Assembly (NCBI GenBank): GCA_000092065.1
Contig: CP000589.1
Source: Ostreococcus lucimarinus
Taxonomy: Eukaryota
Reading direction: 5' to 3' (one strand)
Length of the DNA stretch: 64,000 nt
Every line of letters starts with the position of its first letter. Position 1 is the first letter of the stretch. A program made the position numbers and the translations under genes. Below are positions 1,739 through 45,834 of the stretch, piece by piece. The notes beneath the pieces are model-generated. The model did no database searches. It was not told the origin of the DNA and saw nothing but the letters and a program-made list of their open reading frames with translations.

Positions 1739-4222
1739 ATGTCGTCACGCGGTGGGCGTCAAGACACCGCGAGGGAAGCGCACGTGGAGGACGTTGCGCG
1801 AGTTTTCTCGAGCGCTTACGCAGGGAAAAACACAGTTGGCTTTTGCACGTTCGATCGAGACGCGAACGCGTTCTCGTTGGCGCAGGCGATCGTGAGAGAT
1901 GATGACGAGGATGTGCTGAAGCTATTCTTTCGTACGAGTGGTGCGGACGTCGTGTATTGTTCGAGTGAGTTCAAAGCCGCAATCGAGAAGATGAGCGACG
2001 CGCGCGCGACTACGATTGTGGGAATGCCACGAAGGGAGTTTGGAAACTCAATCGACGCCATGGAAAAGCTACGCGACGTTGGGAAGTTTGAGAGTCGCGG
2101 AGATTTGGCTTCGGTGATAGAGTTGCACGACAACGAAGACGCGGTCATCGCCGCGGGCGGTCTGATCGGCGCCTTGCGGCGAAACGAAGGTCTGAACTTG
2201 CAATTGAAGACGTTCCCGGCAAACGTACAAGAGTTCAACGTCGCAAACTACCTCAGCATTGATATCGAATCGCTATGCGCGATTGGCGTGTTCGTTCCGG
2301 AAGAGTTCCGCGAAAATCAGTTCACAAAAGACATGTTTCAAATCTTTCGTGAAGCCTGCGGAACGTCGAGCGGAAGGAAGCTTCTCGAGCTTTGGTTCAA
2401 GCGCCCAATCTTGAACATGGACGTGTTGCAAGAGCGCCGCGACGCGGTTGAGCATTTCGTCAAGTCTGGATGCCTGAACGCATTGCGCAAACGCATGACG
2501 CCCACGATCGACGCGCATCGTCTACTGTCCGCGATGTCATCCAATGACGCACGAGTGGTGCTACAAACGAAGAGCGACTGGACAAAAATCACAAAATACC
2601 TCGGCGCAGTCTCGTCTTTGTACGATTTCTGCGTAGACGCGTATTTTGATGAAGGTTTGAACGAGCCATCAGCCACTACACCGACCGCAATACGAGACTT
2701 CATGGCCTGTGTGATGTATCGCTTGCCCAAGCTCCGAGCAATCGTCGATCGCGTCATATGCGTAGAAGAGATTTACCCCTTGACTGAACACGAATCTGCG
2801 GTGTATACGTCGTACGTGCGCTCGGGCGTGTGTCAAGAGCTAGACGAATTACGATCGGTGTATCATGGACTGCCGGACCTACTGAAACATGTGCTGGACG
2901 CCGAGCTAACAAAGGTGCCAAACTTTCTTAGGCGCGCGAACGACGTCTGTGAGAAACTAGCAATCTGCTACCTCCCGCAAACGGGTTACCTGTTGAAGAT
3001 CGACGATGAAACCGTGCCCGACGCACTATTGGAAGAAATGGATTGGAAGTACGTGTTCGGCGACGCTACGACAAGCTATTACGAGTTTGCCGCCGGATTA
3101 TGCCTAGCGAACGAGCTCGGCGATGTGTTGCATTCCATCGTCGACTTGCAAGAATCCATATTGCGAGAGCTTCGAGAGGAAATTCTGGCACACGCATCGT
3201 TGATGCGCGATATCTCACGATGCGTGAGCGAAATCGACGTTCTACTAGCATTCGCGGACATTGCCGTCAATTACAACATGTGTCGGCCGACCCTGCGCGA
3301 CGACGACGCGTTCGAAGTCGCCGGCGCGAGGCACCCACTCTACGAATCCTTCATCGAAGGGGAATTCATTGGCAACGACGTTCACATGCCGACAGATCGC
3401 GACCGCGTCATCGTCCTTACCGGGCCTAATGGCAGTGGTAAGACTGTGATGATGCAAACGATTGGTCTTATCACGTATCTGGCGCACTGCGGATCGTTCG
3501 TTCCAGCCACTCGCGCCGTCATCGGCTTGACGGATCGCATATATACAGCGATGACTGCGCTCCGCGAAGATGCCGAGCGCAAGACAAGAGTCCCTGAGAG
3601 TGGTTTCACATACGCGCTGCATCAGGTGGCGCGCATGATTAACAACGCGACTAGACGTTCTTTATGTCTGCTGGATGAGTTCGGCATCCAGACCCAATCC
3701 ACCGACGGCGCGGCGCTCTTAGCCGCCATCGTCGAACATTTCGGGAAGCGAAAGCATCCACCGCGTGTACTCTTCACGACACACTTTCGCGAGGTGTGTG
3801 ATCCCACGATCGTCGGCCCGATCCCACACATGGTCGCACACTGGTGCATGCGCGCCATGGTAAATCCATCGGCCACCGACGATGACGACGTGCACGAAGT
3901 CGAGATGCTCTTCAAACTCGAACGCGGCGTCGCCGATTCCAGCTTCGCGCTTAGTGCGTGCAAGCGCGTCGGTTTTCCCGACGAATTCATGGACCGCTTG
4001 AAATACATCATTCAGCGCGAAAAACGCGCGCGGGCGGGCGAAGACGTTCCTCCGCTCGATCCTTGGGCCGACCCCAAACAGGACGCCAAGCAAGAGGTTT
4101 ACAAAGCCATCTGGGAGCGCTTCGAGCGCGCTCGAGCCGACCCCACCGACGCGGCGATGGAAGATTTCTTGGCCTTTTTCGACTCGCTCGCGCTCGACAA
4201 ATACGGCGTGCCCATCGTTTGA
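1739..4222 (+). CDS. MSH5: MutS homolog 5 (MSH5-like, meiosis-specific MutS family ATPase lacking the mismatch-binding domain)
   Basis: Walker A reads LTGPNGSGKT. This is followed by IGLITYLAHCGSFVPA, then NNATRRSLCLLDEFG..TDGAALLAAIVEHF, then a TTHF motif. From my memory of the human protein, these align closely with MSH5 (VGLITFMALVGSFVPA, NNATAQSLVLIDEFGKGT). The N-terminal domain has no MutS-I mismatch-binding motifs. ATG at 1739 checked. Confidence 0.8.
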   Translation: MSSRGGRQDTAREAHVEDVARVFSSAYAGKNTVGFCTFDRDANAFSLAQAIVRDDDEDVLKLFFRTSGADVVYCSSEFKAAIEKMSDARATTIVGMPRREFGNSIDAMEKLRDVGKFESRGDLASVIELHDNEDAVIAAGGLIGALRRNEGLNLQLKTFPANVQEFNVANYLSIDIESLCAIGVFVPEEFRENQFTKDMFQIFREACGTSSGRKLLELWFKRPILNMDVLQERRDAVEHFVKSGCLNALRKRMTPTIDAHRLLSAMSSNDARVVLQTKSDWTKITKYLGAVSSLYDFCVDAYFDEGLNEPSATTPTAIRDFMACVMYRLPKLRAIVDRVICVEEIYPLTEHESAVYTSYVRSGVCQELDELRSVYHGLPDLLKHVLDAELTKVPNFLRRANDVCEKLAICYLPQTGYLLKIDDETVPDALLEEMDWKYVFGDATTSYYEFAAGLCLANELGDVLHSIVDLQESILRELREEILAHASLMRDISRCVSEIDVLLAFADIAVNYNMCRPTLRDDDAFEVAGARHPLYESFIEGEFIGNDVHMPTDRDRVIVLTGPNGSGKTVMMQTIGLITYLAHCGSFVPATRAVIGLTDRIYTAMTALREDAERKTRVPESGFTYALHQVARMINNATRRSLCLLDEFGIQTQSTDGAALLAAIVEHFGKRKHPPRVLFTTHFREVCDPTIVGPIPHMVAHWCMRAMVNPSATDDDDVHEVEMLFKLERGVADSSFALSACKRVGFPDEFMDRLKYIIQREKRARAGEDVPPLDPWADPKQDAKQEVYKAIWERFERARADPTDAAMEDFLAFFDSLALDKYGVPIV

Positions 4223-4372: not shown

Positions 4373-5182
4373 ATGATGCTCGTGAACACCAGCGCCTTCG
4401 CCGTCCCTCGTCTGGCGCGCGCGGCGCGTCGGTCGTCGACGAACGCGCGCGATGCGACGCGTGTGACGATTCCTCGCGCGCGCGGTGAATTCAGCGCGGC
4501 GACGACGAAACGCGGCGCTGTGAGGCAGACGATCTCGAGTCGGGCCGCGGTTAAGGCGCGCGCGGCGTCGAGCGAGGACGACGCGGTTGATAAGAAGGAG
4601 GGAAGCGATGAGGCGGTGGCGAACATTTCGCGAAAGGTGGCGCGAACGGCGCGCGCGTGCAAATCCCTCGGACGCTGGTCGTTTTGGTCCCAGCTCGTGC
4701 TGACCACTGTCGCGGCGGTGATCGTGGTGTTTTCGTTTCTGTACAAGGGTTTGACCAAGAGCACGGATGCTGGGTTGTATTTTATCCTGTTCGGCTTGGT
4801 CGCGGGGTACTTTACGACAGTTTGGTCGCTGGGCGTCGTGCGATTGGGCGATAAGCTTCGCAAGGGGTCGAAGGATCTGGATTTAGTGCCTCCGCGCACG
4901 GATGTCATTCGAACTCTCAGCACAGGGCTCACGGTGAACGTCATCGGACTCGGGGCGACCATCGTCGGGTTGCAAGCCACGACGGGGATGTTGTTCGCCA
5001 AGACGCTCACGGCGGCGGCGCAAATGCCCATGTACGGTGCTCCAGTCGTCGGCACGGGCGTGGCGTTGGACATTTTCTTGGTGCAAGCTGCGTCGAACGC
5101 CATGCTCGGGCACTGGTTCGGCTTGGCGACAAGCTTGTGGCTTCTCCGTACGGTTAACTTGCCTTCGCCGCCGCCGAAGTAG
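4373..5182 (+). CDS. TIC21: TIC21/PIC1-like chloroplast inner-envelope protein (DUF3611) with N-terminal Ala/Arg/Ser-rich transit peptide
   Basis: There are four predicted TM helices. Conserved blocks GRWSFWSQLVLTTV, PPRTDVIRTLSTGLTVNVIGLGATIVGLQATTGMLFAKTLT and LDIFLVQAASNAMLGHWFGLATSLWLLRTV match the TIC21/DUF3611 pattern as I recall it from the Arabidopsis protein. The first ~70 residues are a transit-peptide-like stretch. Confidence 0.65.
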   Translation: MMLVNTSAFAVPRLARAARRSSTNARDATRVTIPRARGEFSAATTKRGAVRQTISSRAAVKARAASSEDDAVDKKEGSDEAVANISRKVARTARACKSLGRWSFWSQLVLTTVAAVIVVFSFLYKGLTKSTDAGLYFILFGLVAGYFTTVWSLGVVRLGDKLRKGSKDLDLVPPRTDVIRTLSTGLTVNVIGLGATIVGLQATTGMLFAKTLTAAAQMPMYGAPVVGTGVALDIFLVQAASNAMLGHWFGLATSLWLLRTVNLPSPPPK

Positions 5183-5194
5183 TTTGCCTCCTTT

Positions 5195-5199
5195 TGTAA
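5195..5199 (+). promoter_or_regulatory. TGTAA motif 13 nt past the TIC21 stop (candidate green-algal-type poly(A) signal)
   Basis: tagtttgcctccttttgTGTAAtaag read directly. UGUAA is the polyadenylation signal described for Chlamydomonas and other chlorophytes. Confidence 0.3.
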
Positions 5200-5299
5200 T
5201 AAGAATACTCAAGCCAGCTTTTTATCATGAAGTGCTGGATGTGTGATTAAACGGTCAAATAATTCGCGCGCGCGCGTGCTAGATGATTAGTAGAAATGT

Positions 5300-6784
5300 T
5301 TAGAATTGTAGCCAAGGGTGCTCGAGCATTTGCTCGGCGCTCGCTCTCTTCGATGGATTGAAATCGAGCATGGGCGAGAGAAAGTCGCTCAACTCCTTCG
5401 AGTCTGTTTCACTCATGTTGTACTTCTCCATCAACACCCGTTCGCACGGCCAAAACTTGAGCGAGCGGATGTGTCGAAGTTCACCATTACGGTTGAAGAA
5501 CTCTTTGCTGTATTTGCCCGATAACGCAAGATGTTTGGGCATGCGTCCGATGAGCTCCATCATGAGCGCCAGGTGGTCCTCGTCGCGATCGTAGTCCTTC
5601 CCACTTCTGGGGTCGAACAACACGTCCCCGGTGGCGAGCTCGAAAACGATGCACGCGAGACTCCATATATCAGCGCTCGTGTCATACTTCGCACCGAGGA
5701 TGACCTCGGGCGAGCGATATTGTCTCGTCTGAATGTCTTGCGTGAACTGGCGATCGACCCAGCACGCGTTACCCAAATCACAAATTTTCGCGTCAAGATT
5801 CTTCAGCGTGTTGTACGGAAGTAAGTCAACGCAGTCACCGTCGTCGTCATCATCGTCATCGTCGTTGTCGTCGTCGTCGTCGCTCTCTTCTTCCGTATCG
5901 TCTTTGTCCTCTTCCATTTCGTCCGCGCGCTCGCCAGTCTCCGCGCTTCCGTTCGTCGCCGCCTTCTTCCTGAGCTTCTTCTTCAGTTTCTTCTTTTGAT
6001 TCTTCGTCAGTTCCGCCGTTGAATCACCGTTCGCTCCCGCGCCAACGTCCAAGGCCTCAATCTGGGATTCAATCGTCGGCTTCGCTTCGTCCTCGGTCGC
6101 CTTTTTCTTGCTCGACTTGCCGCGTTTCTTCCTCCTTCGCTTCTTCTCCGGAAGCTTGAAAGTCAAGAGCACGTTCTCGGGCTTCAAATCGGTGTGAATT
6201 ATATTCTTCTTTCCGTGCAAATACCTCAATCCCTTCAACATCGCCCTCGTCAGCGCCTTCACTCCCAACAACGGCACCCCCAAGTACTCGTACCGCTTGA
6301 TCAGCGTCAACAAGTTATCCCCCAACACGTCGAACACCATGCACACGTGCGTCCCATTCGGTCCTTCGTGCGTGAAACTATCGTACAAGCACACAACATT
6401 CGTCGCTTCGTCGCCGTCTCCCGTGTCTCCCTCCTTCACTTGTTTCAATATCTCAATCTCGTCCCGCGCCGCCTCGGTGTAACTCCCGCTGCTCTTCTGA
6501 ATTTTCAGCGCTCGCAGCGTCTTCACCGCGCCGTCTTCGCCCGACGCGCCGCGCGCGCGCGCGTCCTCGACGAGCCAACACGTGGAGAAGTGTCCCCAGC
6601 CCAGCTTTTTCACGACGACGTAGCGGTCGTCGTTGTATCGCTCGCCGATCGACACGGGATGGTAGCCGCCGCGCTTGTACCCGTCGGTGCCTTCGTCCTC
6701 GTCGGACGACGACGCCGAGCGCGAGTCGACGTCGTCGACGTCGCGCGCGTCGCTCGAGGACGTGTCGCTCGACGATCGCGTCAT
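5300..6784 (-). CDS. SRPK: SR-protein-specific kinase (SRPK family Ser/Thr kinase) with acidic/Lys-rich spacer insert
   Basis: GWGHFSTCWL glycine loop, HTDLKPENVLL catalytic loop and CDLGNACW DFG-equivalent are present. The C-lobe QTRQYRSPEVILGAKY..ADIWSLACIVFEL is typical of SRPK. A long K/E/D-rich spacer splits the kinase domain. ATG verified at 6784. Confidence 0.85.
   Translation of the reverse strand: MTRSSSDTSSSDARDVDDVDSRSASSSDEDEGTDGYKRGGYHPVSIGERYNDDRYVVVKKLGWGHFSTCWLVEDARARGASGEDGAVKTLRALKIQKSSGSYTEAARDEIEILKQVKEGDTGDGDEATNVVCLYDSFTHEGPNGTHVCMVFDVLGDNLLTLIKRYEYLGVPLLGVKALTRAMLKGLRYLHGKKNIIHTDLKPENVLLTFKLPEKKRRRKKRGKSSKKKATEDEAKPTIESQIEALDVGAGANGDSTAELTKNQKKKLKKKLRKKAATNGSAETGERADEMEEDKDDTEEESDDDDDNDDDDDDDDGDCVDLLPYNTLKNLDAKICDLGNACWVDRQFTQDIQTRQYRSPEVILGAKYDTSADIWSLACIVFELATGDVLFDPRSGKDYDRDEDHLALMMELIGRMPKHLALSGKYSKEFFNRNGELRHIRSLKFWPCERVLMEKYNMSETDSKELSDFLSPMLDFNPSKRASAEQMLEHPWLQF
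5838..5882 (-). repeat. Imperfect GAC/GAT trinucleotide repeat encoding poly-Asp in the SRPK spacer
   Basis: ccgtcgtcgtcatcatcgtcatcgtcgttgtcgtcgtcgtcgtcg on the plus strand, which is DDDDNDDDDDDDDGD in the minus-strand protein. Confidence 0.8.
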
Positions 6785-40772: not shown

Positions 40773-41867
40773 CTATTCAGAGCGGCGCCACTCCGCGTTG
40801 TCGATCGCACGGCTTCGATCGGTATCGAAAATCCTGAATAGTAAATCAAATACTTCCGTCTCGCTCGGCGCTCCGACGTTCCCGGCTTCGGTGCGCATGA
40901 CGTCGCGAAGCGCCTCGCGAGTCACCGAAGATCCGTCGACGCCGGAAAAGGCGTTGTCGAGCGAATCGAGATTCCCGAGAATATACTGCATCGACGCTAG
41001 CTCGCCCGCGCGAGCGCTCGTAAGCTCACCAGCCTTGCGGAATCTGCGCATGAACGCGTACCAAACCGCAGTGGAACCGATGAGGATACCGCCAGCGACG
41101 CTCCAGAATACTCCAATCGGCGCGGTTTCCAAGCCGTGCGGCATATTCATGCCTCCGAGACCCGCCGGCACCGCGGCTACGGCGGCGGAGAGGGCGAAGA
41201 CAGTTGCCCTAAAGTTCATCTGTACGGTACGATTCCTATCACCGTCGAGCTGAAGTTCCCAGAGTTCGCGCGCGCTGTCTAGATCCGCACTAAGCTCTCG
41301 CACTAAGCCTCCGACGGCTGCCAAGCGTCTGGCGTGGCTCGCCAGCACGTCCGTCACCGCGTCGTTTCGCTCCTCCGCCGCCTTTTCGTCGAACACAACA
41401 TCCATGGGTGTCGGTACCAAGTTTGTCGTCGTCATCGCCGCGTTTAACGCTTCCGAGGCTTCGCGAGCGTCTTGCTCAAACTCCTTAATCGCGCGACGAA
41501 TCGGCGGCAACTTTTGCCACTGCGCCGCGTTGTAATTCAAGCTCCCTCCCGTCACGATCCCGCTCTTCCCATCGCCTCGCAAATCGCTCGAGATCTCATC
41601 CACGCAGTGCCTCGCCAACCGCCGCAACCTAAATATTTTTTCTTCAAAATATCGCGAGCTCGCCTCGAGCGCGCACTCGAGCGCCGCCAGCGGAAAATCC
41701 TTCACCGTCCGCGCCTCCGCCCCCGCGCTTCCCTCCGCCGCGTCTCGTTCGCCGACCCACGTCCGCAGCGTATCCACGATGTTCTTCGCCACGCGCGTCG
41801 CCGGTTCGAACACGTACGCGCACTTCGGTCCGACGAGCGTCGTCGTCGGCCCCATTCGCACAACCAT
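40773..41867 (-). CDS. MRS2: CorA/MRS2-family magnesium transporter
   Basis: Signature GMN at the end of TM1 (AGLGGMNMPHGLE). This is preceded by LQLDGDRNRTVQMNF (the LDxxRNxxI coiled region) and followed by two C-terminal TM helices. The track start 41888 is GTG. The ATG is at 41867. Confidence 0.75.
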   Translation of the reverse strand: MVVRMGPTTTLVGPKCAYVFEPATRVAKNIVDTLRTWVGERDAAEGSAGAEARTVKDFPLAALECALEASSRYFEEKIFRLRRLARHCVDEISSDLRGDGKSGIVTGGSLNYNAAQWQKLPPIRRAIKEFEQDAREASEALNAAMTTTNLVPTPMDVVFDEKAAEERNDAVTDVLASHARRLAAVGGLVRELSADLDSARELWELQLDGDRNRTVQMNFRATVFALSAAVAAVPAGLGGMNMPHGLETAPIGVFWSVAGGILIGSTAVWYAFMRRFRKAGELTSARAGELASMQYILGNLDSLDNAFSGVDGSSVTREALRDVMRTEAGNVGAPSETEVFDLLFRIFDTDRSRAIDNAEWRRSE

Positions 41868-42160
41868 CGCCCCGTTCGCCCTTCGCACGAGCGCGCTCGG
41901 CGCGCTCGCGAACGACGCTCGGCTCGACGCGTGTTCCAGCAGCGCCCAATCCCGCGGTCGCAGCGTCGCCAGCAGTCCCGCGGCGCTCGGTCGCGCGTCC
42001 GGTCGCGCGCGGAGCGTCAGCGTCGCGACGTCCTCGTCGCGCGCGACGAGCGCGTCGTTCGCGCGCGCCGCGTCGCGCGTCGCGCGCGCGCGCGGTCGCG
42101 CGCGCGTCGCGCGACGGCGCGGACGCGGGATCCGAATCGATTCGCGTTCGTTACGACGTC

Positions 42161-43501
42161 GTGCGCGCGCGCGCGACGGCGGCGCTGCGTCGCGTCCTCG
42201 ACGACGGCGCGGACGCGAGCGCGGTGCTGCGCAAGGCGCTCAGGCCGGGAACGGCGCGCGTGACGAACGACGAGCGCGCGGCGATCGCGCGCGCGACGCT
42301 CGGCGCGACGGCGTGGCGACTCAGGTTGGAAGCCGAACTCGCGAGCGCGACGAGGCACGGAACGCGCGAGGCGCGCGCGTGCGCGGAACGCGCGGGCGAT
42401 CGAGCGGAGAAGTTGATTTTGATGTACTGGAGCGGCGATCGGGGCTCGGGGGGGAGGGCGGTGGTGCCGAGCGCGGAGGACGCGCGCGCGATGTACGGCG
42501 ACGGCGCGGCGGATTTGAGAATCGCGGCGAGGGAGGAAAACGTGCGTTGGTCGAGCGACGACGCGATCGCGGTGGGGCAGAAAACCGCGCTGCCGCGACC
42601 TTTGGTGGATGCGCTGATTCGAGAGTATGGACGAGAGGAGGCGCTGGCGTTCGGAGCGGCGATAAACGCGCCGGGACCGGTGACGTGTCGAGCCAACGGC
42701 GCGCTCGCGCGCGGGGGCGCGGATGAGGTGGCGGCGATGCTCGCGAGGGAAGGCATCAGGACGGAGAAGACGAAGTATGGACTTGCGGCGCCGCTCGCGT
42801 TCGTCCTTCCCGATGGGCCGCCGAAAAACGGCGGGATCTTTGGATGCGACGTCTGGCGTCGCGGATACTTTGAAGTCATGGACGAGGGGTCGCAGTGCAT
42901 CGCAAACGCCGTCGGCGCGCGAGAAGGCGAGCGCATCTTGGACGCGTGCGCGGGAAACGGCGGAAAAACACTCGCCATGGCGGCGAACATGAATGGACAC
43001 GGCGAAATATGCGCGTTTGACATCGACAAACGACGTTTATTGCACTTGAAGGCGAACGCGGCGCGCGCGCGCGTCGACGCGCTGGTGACGACGACGGAAT
43101 CGCTCGACGAATTAGCCTCGGAATCGTTCGATGCGATTCTCGTCGACGCTCCGTGCTCGTCCGTCGGTGCTTTACGACGAACACCATCGCTACGTCACTC
43201 GTACGACGATCCGCGCGAGCTGGCAAAGGTCCAGGCGGAAATTCTCGACGGCGTCGCTCGTTTGCTAAAGCCAGGCGGGCGATTGGTGTACGCGACGTGT
43301 TCGGTGTTGTCGATCGAAAATCAAGACGTCGCCGAGGCGTTTGAAAGAAAGCACGACGATTTTGCGCCTTGGCCGTTCGAGGACTCGGTGCTCACGTCGC
43401 CCGCGGTCGAGTTGCGATCGCACGAACGTTTGTTTCTACCACACGTGCACGGAACGGATGGATTCTTCATCGCGCGTTTTGTTCGAAGAACCGCTGATTA
43501 A
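42161..43501 (+). CDS. NOL1/NOP2/Sun-family RNA (cytosine-5)-methyltransferase (RsmB-like) with NusB-like N-terminal domain; start codon unresolved
   Basis: SAM-binding ILDACAGNGGKT, catalytic DAPCSSVGALRR and GGRLVYATCSV (TCS) motifs. The frame is open from 42161 (GTG). The first in-frame ATG is only at 42422, and there is no ATG in the 280-bp upstream spacer. Confidence 0.75.
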   Translation: MRARATAALRRVLDDGADASAVLRKALRPGTARVTNDERAAIARATLGATAWRLRLEAELASATRHGTREARACAERAGDRAEKLILMYWSGDRGSGGRAVVPSAEDARAMYGDGAADLRIAAREENVRWSSDDAIAVGQKTALPRPLVDALIREYGREEALAFGAAINAPGPVTCRANGALARGGADEVAAMLAREGIRTEKTKYGLAAPLAFVLPDGPPKNGGIFGCDVWRRGYFEVMDEGSQCIANAVGAREGERILDACAGNGGKTLAMAANMNGHGEICAFDIDKRRLLHLKANAARARVDALVTTTESLDELASESFDAILVDAPCSSVGALRRTPSLRHSYDDPRELAKVQAEILDGVARLLKPGGRLVYATCSVLSIENQDVAEAFERKHDDFAPWPFEDSVLTSPAVELRSHERLFLPHVHGTDGFFIARFVRRTAD

Positions 43502-43518: not shown

Positions 43519-45834
43519 CTAGGTTGTCTTTCTAAGCCTGAGTAGCATTCTAATTTCCGCGATATTCTCGTGAGCGTGAGCTTCGAGTTCATACACGAAA
43601 TCATCAAGCGCATCTTCCGGTACGACGAGCAAATTCAGGCGAGTCGACAGAGCTTCGAATCGCTCGATGCTCTCGCGAGCTGTCATCGTCTTTCGTACCC
43701 ATGAAACGTACGCGTTGACGTCGAGCTTGAGTTGCATAGCGCCAACTATGGTATACGTATATCTGCACACGTGTCTGAAGAGCAAGGAATAAAATTGAGC
43801 GCCGATTTCATTCAAGAGCGTCGCCGCGTTTGCCGAATCCAAGCATTCGAGCGTCGTCTTCGCCAAACCGTCGAGAGCATCAACCACGGCTACGCACGCC
43901 TCTGTCTCACGCTCGGCAAACGATGATTCGTCATTGAAGTCTACCGCTCGCTGCGTACCACGGAATTTAGCGTCCACTAGCGTCATGCCGCGCGTCGTCA
44001 TGGCCTCTAAGACCTCCGACATTTCCTCGGCGAGTCGGCTTTGCGCGACGGCAAACATTTGCCGCACTGTGCCAGGAGAGAGCTCCGAGTTCATCGTATC
44101 GATCGCATCGCGCGCACGTGCGAGCCACGCGTTCATGTTCCTGGAAGCGAGCAACACGGGCTCGAACACATCGGCGCGTGCTTCTTCACGCGTCGTCCAG
44201 GCGTTGAGACGCGCGCTCGCCGACTTTGTCGCCGCAATCGATTCGCGAAGATGCCTCTGCGCGAGACGGGTGACGCGGCCCAGGAATGCCTCGGCGAGCC
44301 GTGCTCGCACGCTTTCAATCGAAGTCCCAGGCACGCACGATTCGACTCGAAGAAGCGCTTCTTTGTAACGAGCACATAAATCATCCAGAGAGAACTCAGT
44401 CGCGTCGCGCTGCGGCAAGACGTCGTCATCGCTGGGCACCGAGTCCAAACAAGCGCACTCATCGTCCACGAGCGTCTCACACCCGATGCCAAAAAACACG
44501 TCCGGATCGATCGCCTCAACGTCTGCGTCGTCGTTCGTCATTTCACGTATCGCGCGATTCAAAATCTCAATCTCGCGCAACGACAGCGCCGTGAGTGCCA
44601 GGCGCTGCCGAAGCGACGCTGCGGTGCGCAATTCGGTGGTGAGAAAAGTCTCAACGTACGCCCCGATTCGCTGCTCCGCGATCCGATGCACGAGAGTGTT
44701 AAGAACGACGATAGCGCGCGAATCGAACGCGGCGGTAATCGATTGAAATTCCCTTTTCACCGCGCTTTGAATTTGCGCAAAAAATGTGCGAACGCACTCG
44801 GTGCACAAAGATTCATCCTCGCCGAGAATCACCGATCGCTCGACGACGTTACGAAGGCGTTGAATCTCTTCCATCGCGTTCGCAGAGATGAACATTTCAC
44901 GGCTCGCGACGTACCGCGAGACGACGCTGTGTCCGCCGTTGAACTCAAATAACGCCTCAGCGTCGGCTCGCGCTGCTGCGTACGACTTATTCGCGCACGC
45001 CGCGGCAAATTTGTCCAAAAGTGCGTTTTCAACGTCTTCACAGTACCTTTGCAACGCCGTCGAGGCGTCCTTGAGCGCTAATCGCTCCGCGCCCGCGTCC
45101 TCGTCCGCGATGCGACACGACTGCGCGCGTTCGACGACGGAGAGTGATCTTTTCGCCAAGCGTCCCGCTTCGCCTCGTCGCGCCGCGTCCGCAAACAGTC
45201 CATCGCACGCCTTCGCGACCGCTTCGCCACCCTTAGAAAACGCACACACGCACTCCAAAACATCAGCCAACGTCCCCAACGCGTCGGCGCGTCGACTCGC
45301 GCTCGCAGCTTCCGCGTTCGCCGGCGACTCCAACCGTTCCAACACGCGTTCCGTCATTAACGACGCCCTCGCCATGTCCTCGCACACACTTTCGCGTTCT
45401 ACCGCGTGTTTCTTCACCGTCTCCCGCAGTGTGCGCGCCGCGCCCTCCGCGCTCGCTCGCCGAAGCTCGGCGCGCGCCGCGCTCTCCGCCCTTCGTCGCT
45501 CCAGCGCGTCAACCACCTTCTGCGCGCCCGCGATCGCGTCCTCCACCCCTCCGCGCGCGGCTTCGGCGCAGAGTGACACCGCGACGTCGCGCGCGCGCCT
45601 CGCGCCGTGCTGCGCGCGTCGATGCGAGTCAGTCACCGCGCGTCGTCTCGACAAAGTTCGTTGGTTCGAGTTGGTTCGAAAGACGACGCGAAACGCACCT
45701 CGGCGAAGGCTTCGAGGGACGTGGAGACATCGTCGAGCGCGCGGTCGAGGGCGGCGACATCCATGCGTCGCGCGCGCGTCGCGCGCGAGGGCCGACGCGA
45801 CGGAGTCTGTGGCTTCGCCTCGCCGTCGCGCCAA
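43519..45834 (-). CDS. Probable exocyst complex component Sec10 (EXOC5)-like helical protein; start uncertain
   Basis: About 770 aa and all-helical. The C-terminal FRHVCRYTYTIVGAMQLKLDVNAYVSWVRK...FEALSTRLNLLVVPEDAL fits the Sec10 C-terminal pattern from memory (h.k.f.vs.GG..L..D...Y...V...FE.L.EL.NL.LV.PENL). The track start 45834 is TTG. Confidence 0.45.
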   Translation of the reverse strand: MARRRGEATDSVASALARDARATHGCRRPRPRARRCLHVPRSLRRGAFRVVFRTNSNQRTLSRRRAVTDSHRRAQHGARRARDVAVSLCAEAARGGVEDAIAGAQKVVDALERRRAESAARAELRRASAEGAARTLRETVKKHAVERESVCEDMARASLMTERVLERLESPANAEAASASRRADALGTLADVLECVCAFSKGGEAVAKACDGLFADAARRGEAGRLAKRSLSVVERAQSCRIADEDAGAERLALKDASTALQRYCEDVENALLDKFAAACANKSYAAARADAEALFEFNGGHSVVSRYVASREMFISANAMEEIQRLRNVVERSVILGEDESLCTECVRTFFAQIQSAVKREFQSITAAFDSRAIVVLNTLVHRIAEQRIGAYVETFLTTELRTAASLRQRLALTALSLREIEILNRAIREMTNDDADVEAIDPDVFFGIGCETLVDDECACLDSVPSDDDVLPQRDATEFSLDDLCARYKEALLRVESCVPGTSIESVRARLAEAFLGRVTRLAQRHLRESIAATKSASARLNAWTTREEARADVFEPVLLASRNMNAWLARARDAIDTMNSELSPGTVRQMFAVAQSRLAEEMSEVLEAMTTRGMTLVDAKFRGTQRAVDFNDESSFAERETEACVAVVDALDGLAKTTLECLDSANAATLLNEIGAQFYSLLFRHVCRYTYTIVGAMQLKLDVNAYVSWVRKTMTARESIERFEALSTRLNLLVVPEDALDDFVYELEAHAHENIAEIRMLLRLRKTT

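Follow-up and report, generated by a model that had tools for sequence, protein, structure and literature searches.

The gene for an RsmB-like m5C RNA methyltransferase in the window – that is, the whole stretch of 64,000 nucleotides analysed here, part of the reference sequence of Ostreococcus lucimarinus CCE9901 – has no start codon because the reference lacks a 198-bp segment in which the ATG resides. This segment, its content and its boundaries can be read directly from near-identical environmental relatives: it comprises the ATG and codons 1–39 of a divergent Mrs2-like gene, a 20-bp spacer, and the ATG and codons 1–18 of the methyltransferase gene. No unusual initiation mechanism or hidden exon is needed. 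As for how the segment was lost, we infer that it probably disappeared as an artefact of cloning, PCR or finishing of the reference.

In the methyltransferase frame, which is open from well upstream on the plus strand and whose stop codon ends at 43501, the first GTG is found at 42161–42163 (the start of the 446-aa ORF returned by ORF finders), and the first in-frame ATG at 42422–42424, as codon 88 of that ORF. The initial annotation had placed the first ATG 87 codons in, which the frame scan bears out, and had rightly stated that the stretch back to the divergent MRS2 gene contains none. A scan of the plus strand gives zero ATG from 41779 to 42422, and one of the minus strand (read as CAT) gives none above 41865–41867 up to at least 42500; across 41868–42421, ATG is thus absent from both strands. 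Taken alone, this absence is not statistically striking: the 554-bp ATG-free stretch has a GC content of 77%, and simulations under a first-order Markov model put the chance of finding no ATG in 554 bp at P ~0.30 for one strand and ~0.10 for both. The absence becomes meaningful because the 87 codons upstream of 42422 are conserved.

By its sequence, the window gene is assigned to the NOL1/NOP2/Sun (RsmB/F) family of m5C RNA methyltransferases (Pfam PF01189). The window ORF scores 140.8 bits against a cut-off of 27, the intact protein scores 143 bits, and the ORF contains both catalytic Cys motifs – DAPCS (the Pro-Cys of motif IV) and ATCS (the Thr-Cys of motif VI) – which are invariant in 12 as well as in 42 homologues. 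The equivalog cut-offs for RsmB proper are not reached (NCBIfam NF011494, 215 versus 319 bits; TIGR00563, 178 versus 269 bits). In the alignments with these models, residues 119–443 of the GTG ORF correspond to profile positions 126–445, and the first ~118 residues of the ORF therefore fall opposite the RsmB N-terminal domain.

What the window retains of this gene (42062–43501, plus strand) corresponds to codons 19–497 and the stop codon of an intact counterpart, P0001, a protein of 497 aa that was found to be 99% identical by homology search and is encoded at 4809–6302 of an environmental locus, L001. A second homologue, P0002, has 500 aa and 89% identity. Each of the two starts with Met and then has an Arg/Ala-rich leader ~50 residues long, and the GTG at 42161 corresponds to an internal residue, Val52, around which P0001 reads ...RYDVVRARATAAL.... 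At 43041 (codon 294 of the GTG ORF), the window has TTG (Leu) and ten of ten intact environmental loci have TCG (Ser); this is the sole window-private substitution in the methyltransferase.

In RefSeq and UniProt, the gene is modelled as a shorter protein of 359 aa that starts at Met 42422 (XP_001419585.1 / A4S2S3 by exact look-up), which would make the upstream part of the ORF non-coding. Despite these entries, we regard such a reading as scarcely credible, and the orthologue alignment refutes it. Across the 12 Mamiellophyceae sequences aligned, the 87 codons before 42422 hold invariant residues throughout; the column of Met 42422, by comparison, is variable (M/C/A/T), directly before an invariant Tyr-Trp. 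In the intact protein this residue is Met139, and conspecific contigs encode the full 497 aa. The initial annotation had itself considered that orthologues might start at the equivalent Met, and none of those aligned does.

Structure prediction speaks to the same region. An AlphaFold2 model of P0001 (mean pLDDT 87, residues 1–42 disordered) contains a six-helix NusB-like N-terminal domain at residues 49–142 (42152–42433, plus strand), with helices at 49–66, 70–77, 87–102, 104–117, 120–128 and 132–142 (pLDDT ~83–97). The codons upstream of Met139 lie inside this helical domain, at pLDDT ~90, and the annotated start would fall in its last helix. The best PDB matches found by Foldseek over the full length are 1sqf (E. 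coli Fmu/RsmB) and 2yxl (PH0851 of P. horikoshii), with 464–477 aligned columns, a span that takes in the NusB-like N-terminal domain; for relatives with the catalytic part only, the alignment is ~330 columns long. A search for this domain with Pfam NusB, NCBIfam or PDB profiles returned no match. Based on the model, we assign to the protein a predicted NusB-like RNA-binding domain ahead of the catalytic core, in support of the initial annotation, which had considered such a domain genuine.

The intact form of the locus recurs in environmental assemblies. At least 13 independent contigs, 99.4–99.9% identical to the window, carry the 198 extra bases, and a head-to-head layout of a 470-aa gene, a 20-bp spacer and a 497-aa gene is present in L001, L016–L020, L022–L025 and L027, one of these contigs, Ga0494228_00068 (JGI 3300046167), being 662,958 bp long. 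Over ~11 kb, these intact loci share 99.4–99.6% identity with the window. In the assembly collection, 65 index blocks contain the 470-aa protein, and among the ten places listed for it eight have the 470-aa / 20-bp / 497-aa layout; in L019, the same 20-bp spacing comes with a 500-aa model of the methyltransferase. Within the two genes, the intact loci differ from the window at 0–4 positions (L023, for instance, has 0/1218 and 2/1372 mismatches), and L032 matches it perfectly over the 1218 + 147 nt compared, yet has both ATGs.

The deletion junction reads GTCGTTCGCGCGCGCCGCGTCG, and GGCATCGTCGCGCGCGCGTGTGCCGATGG marks the intact form. Of the 39 fetched loci, 19 contain a 33-mer that includes both ATGs; the window lacks it, even with three mismatches allowed. 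Conversely, the 31-mer of the window junction was found in none of the fetched loci and in no JGI metagenome contig, although the latter search has little power, because a control with the intact start region matched only one contig there. Exact-protein look-ups intended to reach CCE9901's own contigs returned environmental samples only, none of them demonstrably the strain.

The head-to-head arrangement also extends beyond the closest relatives. The two ATGs – of the methyltransferase gene and of the 470- or 469-aa gene beside it – are 20 bp apart in L001 and 16 bp apart in L002, and Ostreococcus lineages further removed (protein identity 56% and 53%) have the same synteny and the same head-to-head pair, with ATGs 29 and 66 bp apart. 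As the pair is intact in both near and distant Ostreococcus, the presence of the segment is ancestral and represents the norm. The spacer between the ATGs, at 4789–4808 in L001, is likewise short in L002, L037 and L038. With start codons only 20 bp apart, the promoter and 5′ UTR of each gene must lie within the coding sequence of the other.

The junction itself lies at 42060–42068 (no strand assigned) and consists of one copy of a 9-bp repeat, CGCGCGCGC. This repeat occurs once in the window and twice in L001 (4663–4671 and 4861–4869), the two copies being 198 bp apart, and in the intact relatives both start codons sit between them. In exact identity walks, the window and L001 agree up to 42068 when read from the left and down to 42060 when read from the right, and DNA alignments show the window to be collinear with L001, L002 and ten further loci save for ~198 bp; across ~11 kb, no other indel sets it apart from all ten intact loci. 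The missing segment has 85.9% GC and 69 CpG, and the richest 200-bp stretch within the whole 64 kb, at 82.5% GC, is below it. The 18 and 39 codons lost are the start of the Arg/Ala-rich presequences of the two genes. A collapse on a long tandem repeat, initially indicated by a ~98-bp duplicated block in BLAST, was considered and rejected: exact mapping leaves only the 9-bp perfect repeat, and the remainder of the apparent duplication is low-complexity CG similarity.

These comparisons bear on the causes that the initial annotation had offered without choosing among them. Its suggestion of an assembly indel holds in substance, given that 198 bp with the ATG are absent relative to near-identical conspecific contigs. 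The other two – a non-AUG start (GTG 42161, or an upstream CUG or ACG) or an ATG in a spliced, unrecognised upstream exon – both take the sequence to be complete, and we consider them very improbable. Such readings could draw on the frame being open far upstream and the N-terminal domain being conserved, and roughly 16–20% of O. lucimarinus genes have introns (PMC2367439). However, all orthologues, even the 99% identical ones, have an ordinary ATG in a continuous ORF collinear with the window, ~50 codons upstream of the GTG, which is thus an internal codon; no relative has the donor/acceptor arrangement that an upstream exon would need; and the methyltransferase frame, once past the junction in the upstream direction, reads the antisense strand of conserved coding sequence in the neighbour. 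Nor is the 280 bp that the initial annotation had described as a spacer intergenic: it consists of remaining coding sequence from the two genes, which meets at the deletion junction, and both RefSeq models are therefore truncated.

The second of these genes, which encodes a Mrs2/CorA-like Mg2+ channel, is retained in the window at 40773–42068 on the minus strand, as codons 40–470 plus the stop codon. That it is beheaded by the same event had escaped the initial annotation, which had also placed its start at 41868; the annotated ATG is at 41865–41867 (minus strand). This ATG, the start of XP_001419796.1 / A4S2S2 (364 aa modelled, by exact look-up), corresponds to internal Met107 of an intact protein of 470 aa, which is encoded at 3376–4788 of L001 and in many other contigs. 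Upstream of the annotated ATG the frame stays open and homologous as far as the junction, and ...ARANDALVARDEDVATLTLRARPDARPSAAGLLATLRPRDWALLEH... is common to the window frame and the intact 470-aa protein. A GMN motif is present (GLGGMNMP), followed by a hydrophobic stretch, the transmembrane helices being judged by eye. The human MRS2 match is found by phmmer at E=1.7e-5 over residues 203–379, a match to the Mrs2 channel has E=0.006, and Pfam CorA gives no match at E<5 in this protein. Its N-terminal region resembles the Mrs2 motif pattern (...RPRD..LL...PSALV.R..A...). A tail at 40773–40920 (minus strand) shows weak Pfam EF-hand matches (E ~0.01–0.06), and UniProt names the protein 'EF-hand domain-containing protein'; if genuine, a Ca2+-sensing tail of this kind would be unusual for a CorA/Mrs2-type channel.

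The GC-rich start region is a trouble spot for sequencing and assembly well beyond the reference. Between fixed anchors on either side, the interval measures 456 bp when intact (including in L019), and 460 bp in L021, which has the look of a noisy assembly from long reads. In other assemblies of this population, made from short reads, it measures 228, 304, 348, 388 (with Ns), 400, 416, 425 and 434 bp, each of these eight lengths reflecting a different deletion at CG-rich microhomologies, several of them frame-breaking; lengths vary even between samples of one study, and at least nine contigs end inside the stretch. Contigs that appear, from their naming and error pattern, to be long-read assemblies give the full length. 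The troubled loci are L003–L015 and L028–L036 (equivalent to window 41990–42130), and the gene calls made from these assemblies (variants of 364, 446, 538, 566 and 570 aa) are unreliable.

In L001, 321 nt that span the missing segment fold at −176 kcal/mol; however, this is no better than dinucleotide shuffles of it (z = −0.74), so the stability comes from composition and not from a particular structure, and a specific hairpin was rejected as the cause. Over 41780–43030 of the window, the CGC/GCG codons of both presequences lie on opposite strands. The DNA is consequently quasi-palindromic and nearly stop-free in all six frames, which in turn accounts for spurious ORFs at 41779–42726 (plus strand), 42017–43000 (minus strand) and 42151–43029 (minus strand).

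Against the artefact reading, one can set the view that the deletion is real and recent, and arose in CCE9901 by microhomology-mediated loss (replication slippage) between the CGCGCGCGC repeats; both genes would then be silenced, or would be translated only from internal AUGs, into untargeted proteins that lack their N termini. A deletion between short direct repeats classically leaves a junction of this kind, and deletions flanked by microhomology also arise in vivo, which counts against an artefact. The O. lucimarinus reference is a finished Sanger genome, and an overlap assembler would not be misled by a repeat of only 9 bp, which makes an assembly collapse on it implausible; the deletion must therefore have been carried by the molecules sequenced (clones or PCR products) or by the genome itself. 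The quasi-palindromic, CpG-rich stretch could also be fragile in vivo, and laboratory strains of the sister species have fixed small gene-disabling deletions (PMC4378021).

Even so, a real deletion strikes us as unlikely. It would have decapitated two conserved genes at once, precisely where cloning and sequencing are hardest, and its junction was seen in no other contig. The remaining 2.7 kb of both genes show no decay: relative to the ten intact loci, private substitutions number zero in the Mrs2-like part and one in the methyltransferase part, the retained parts have no frame disruption, and there is no other private indel in 11 kb, so a real event would have to be very recent. Moreover, the deletions in laboratory-evolved O. 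tauri measured only 1 and 6 bp over ~6000 generations (PMC4378021). A broader version of the same idea – in which the start region is a natural fragile site, CCE9901 a strain in which both genes were spontaneously knocked out or truncated to untargeted forms, and the deletions in the metagenomes partly real variants – seems to us more doubtful again.

If the loss is, as we think probable, a defect of the reference sequence, a very GC-rich, hairpin-prone insert may have been deleted while it was being cloned in E. coli; another candidate route is a template jump from one 9-bp repeat to the other in a product of PCR or finishing. On this reading, both genes would be intact in the living strain. 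With the segment gone from the reference, both frames run into each other's antisense without an ATG, and annotators fell back on the internal methionines Met139 and Met107.

The benefit of recognising the gap is mainly one of curation. In RefSeq/UniProt, two entries of this widely used reference alga are truncated at the N terminus, and both gene models lack their targeting presequences, which misleads localisation predictions and orthologue alignments; both should be extended or flagged. More generally, extremely GC-rich start regions are places where the CCE9901 reference can be incomplete and where metagenome assemblies from short reads cannot be relied on. Were the deletion real, CCE9901 would be a natural double mutant in an organellar rRNA methyltransferase and a Mrs2-like Mg2+ channel. 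As a separate observation, the adjacent Sec10-like gene (43519–45834, minus strand) appears in the window as a 771-aa ORF from TTG, compared with 705 aa in environmental contigs (686 in one); the mechanical ORF start probably lies upstream of the true ATG.

The closest parallel to the missing segment is found in the sister species O. tauri, where resequencing corrected 3342 indels in the reference (PMC4378021). The first and second O. tauri versions likewise set indels of a Sanger-era reference against later data and show how these distort gene models. The present case differs in that conspecific environmental contigs, instead of new sequence data for the same strain, provide the evidence, and in that the lesion is large (198 bp).

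As regards the two proteins, eukaryotic mitochondrial Mg2+ channels of the Mrs2/CorA type (human MRS2, 8ip3/8tul; Mrs2 channel, 8q8p) have the GMN motif between two C-terminal transmembrane helices, as does the neighbour, which, unlike them, has an extra C-terminal EF-hand-like tail (weak matches). The methyltransferase, for its part, most closely resembles bacterial RsmB/Fmu, the enzyme responsible for m5C967 of 16S rRNA (1sqf/1sqg, 2yxl): a NusB-like domain, a ferredoxin-like linker and a Rossmann-type catalytic domain are common to both, as are the two catalytic Cys motifs. Bacterial RsmB/Fmu is the best full-length structural match (TM 0.71–0.76, normalised to the target), and the NCBIfam models that match best, those for RsmB, align over nearly their whole length. 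In contrast to its bacterial relatives, the window gene is nuclear and eukaryotic, its protein scores below the NCBIfam equivalog cut-offs and has a putative rRNA target, and it bears a disordered Arg/Ala-rich presequence of ~45 residues that presumably serves organelle import.
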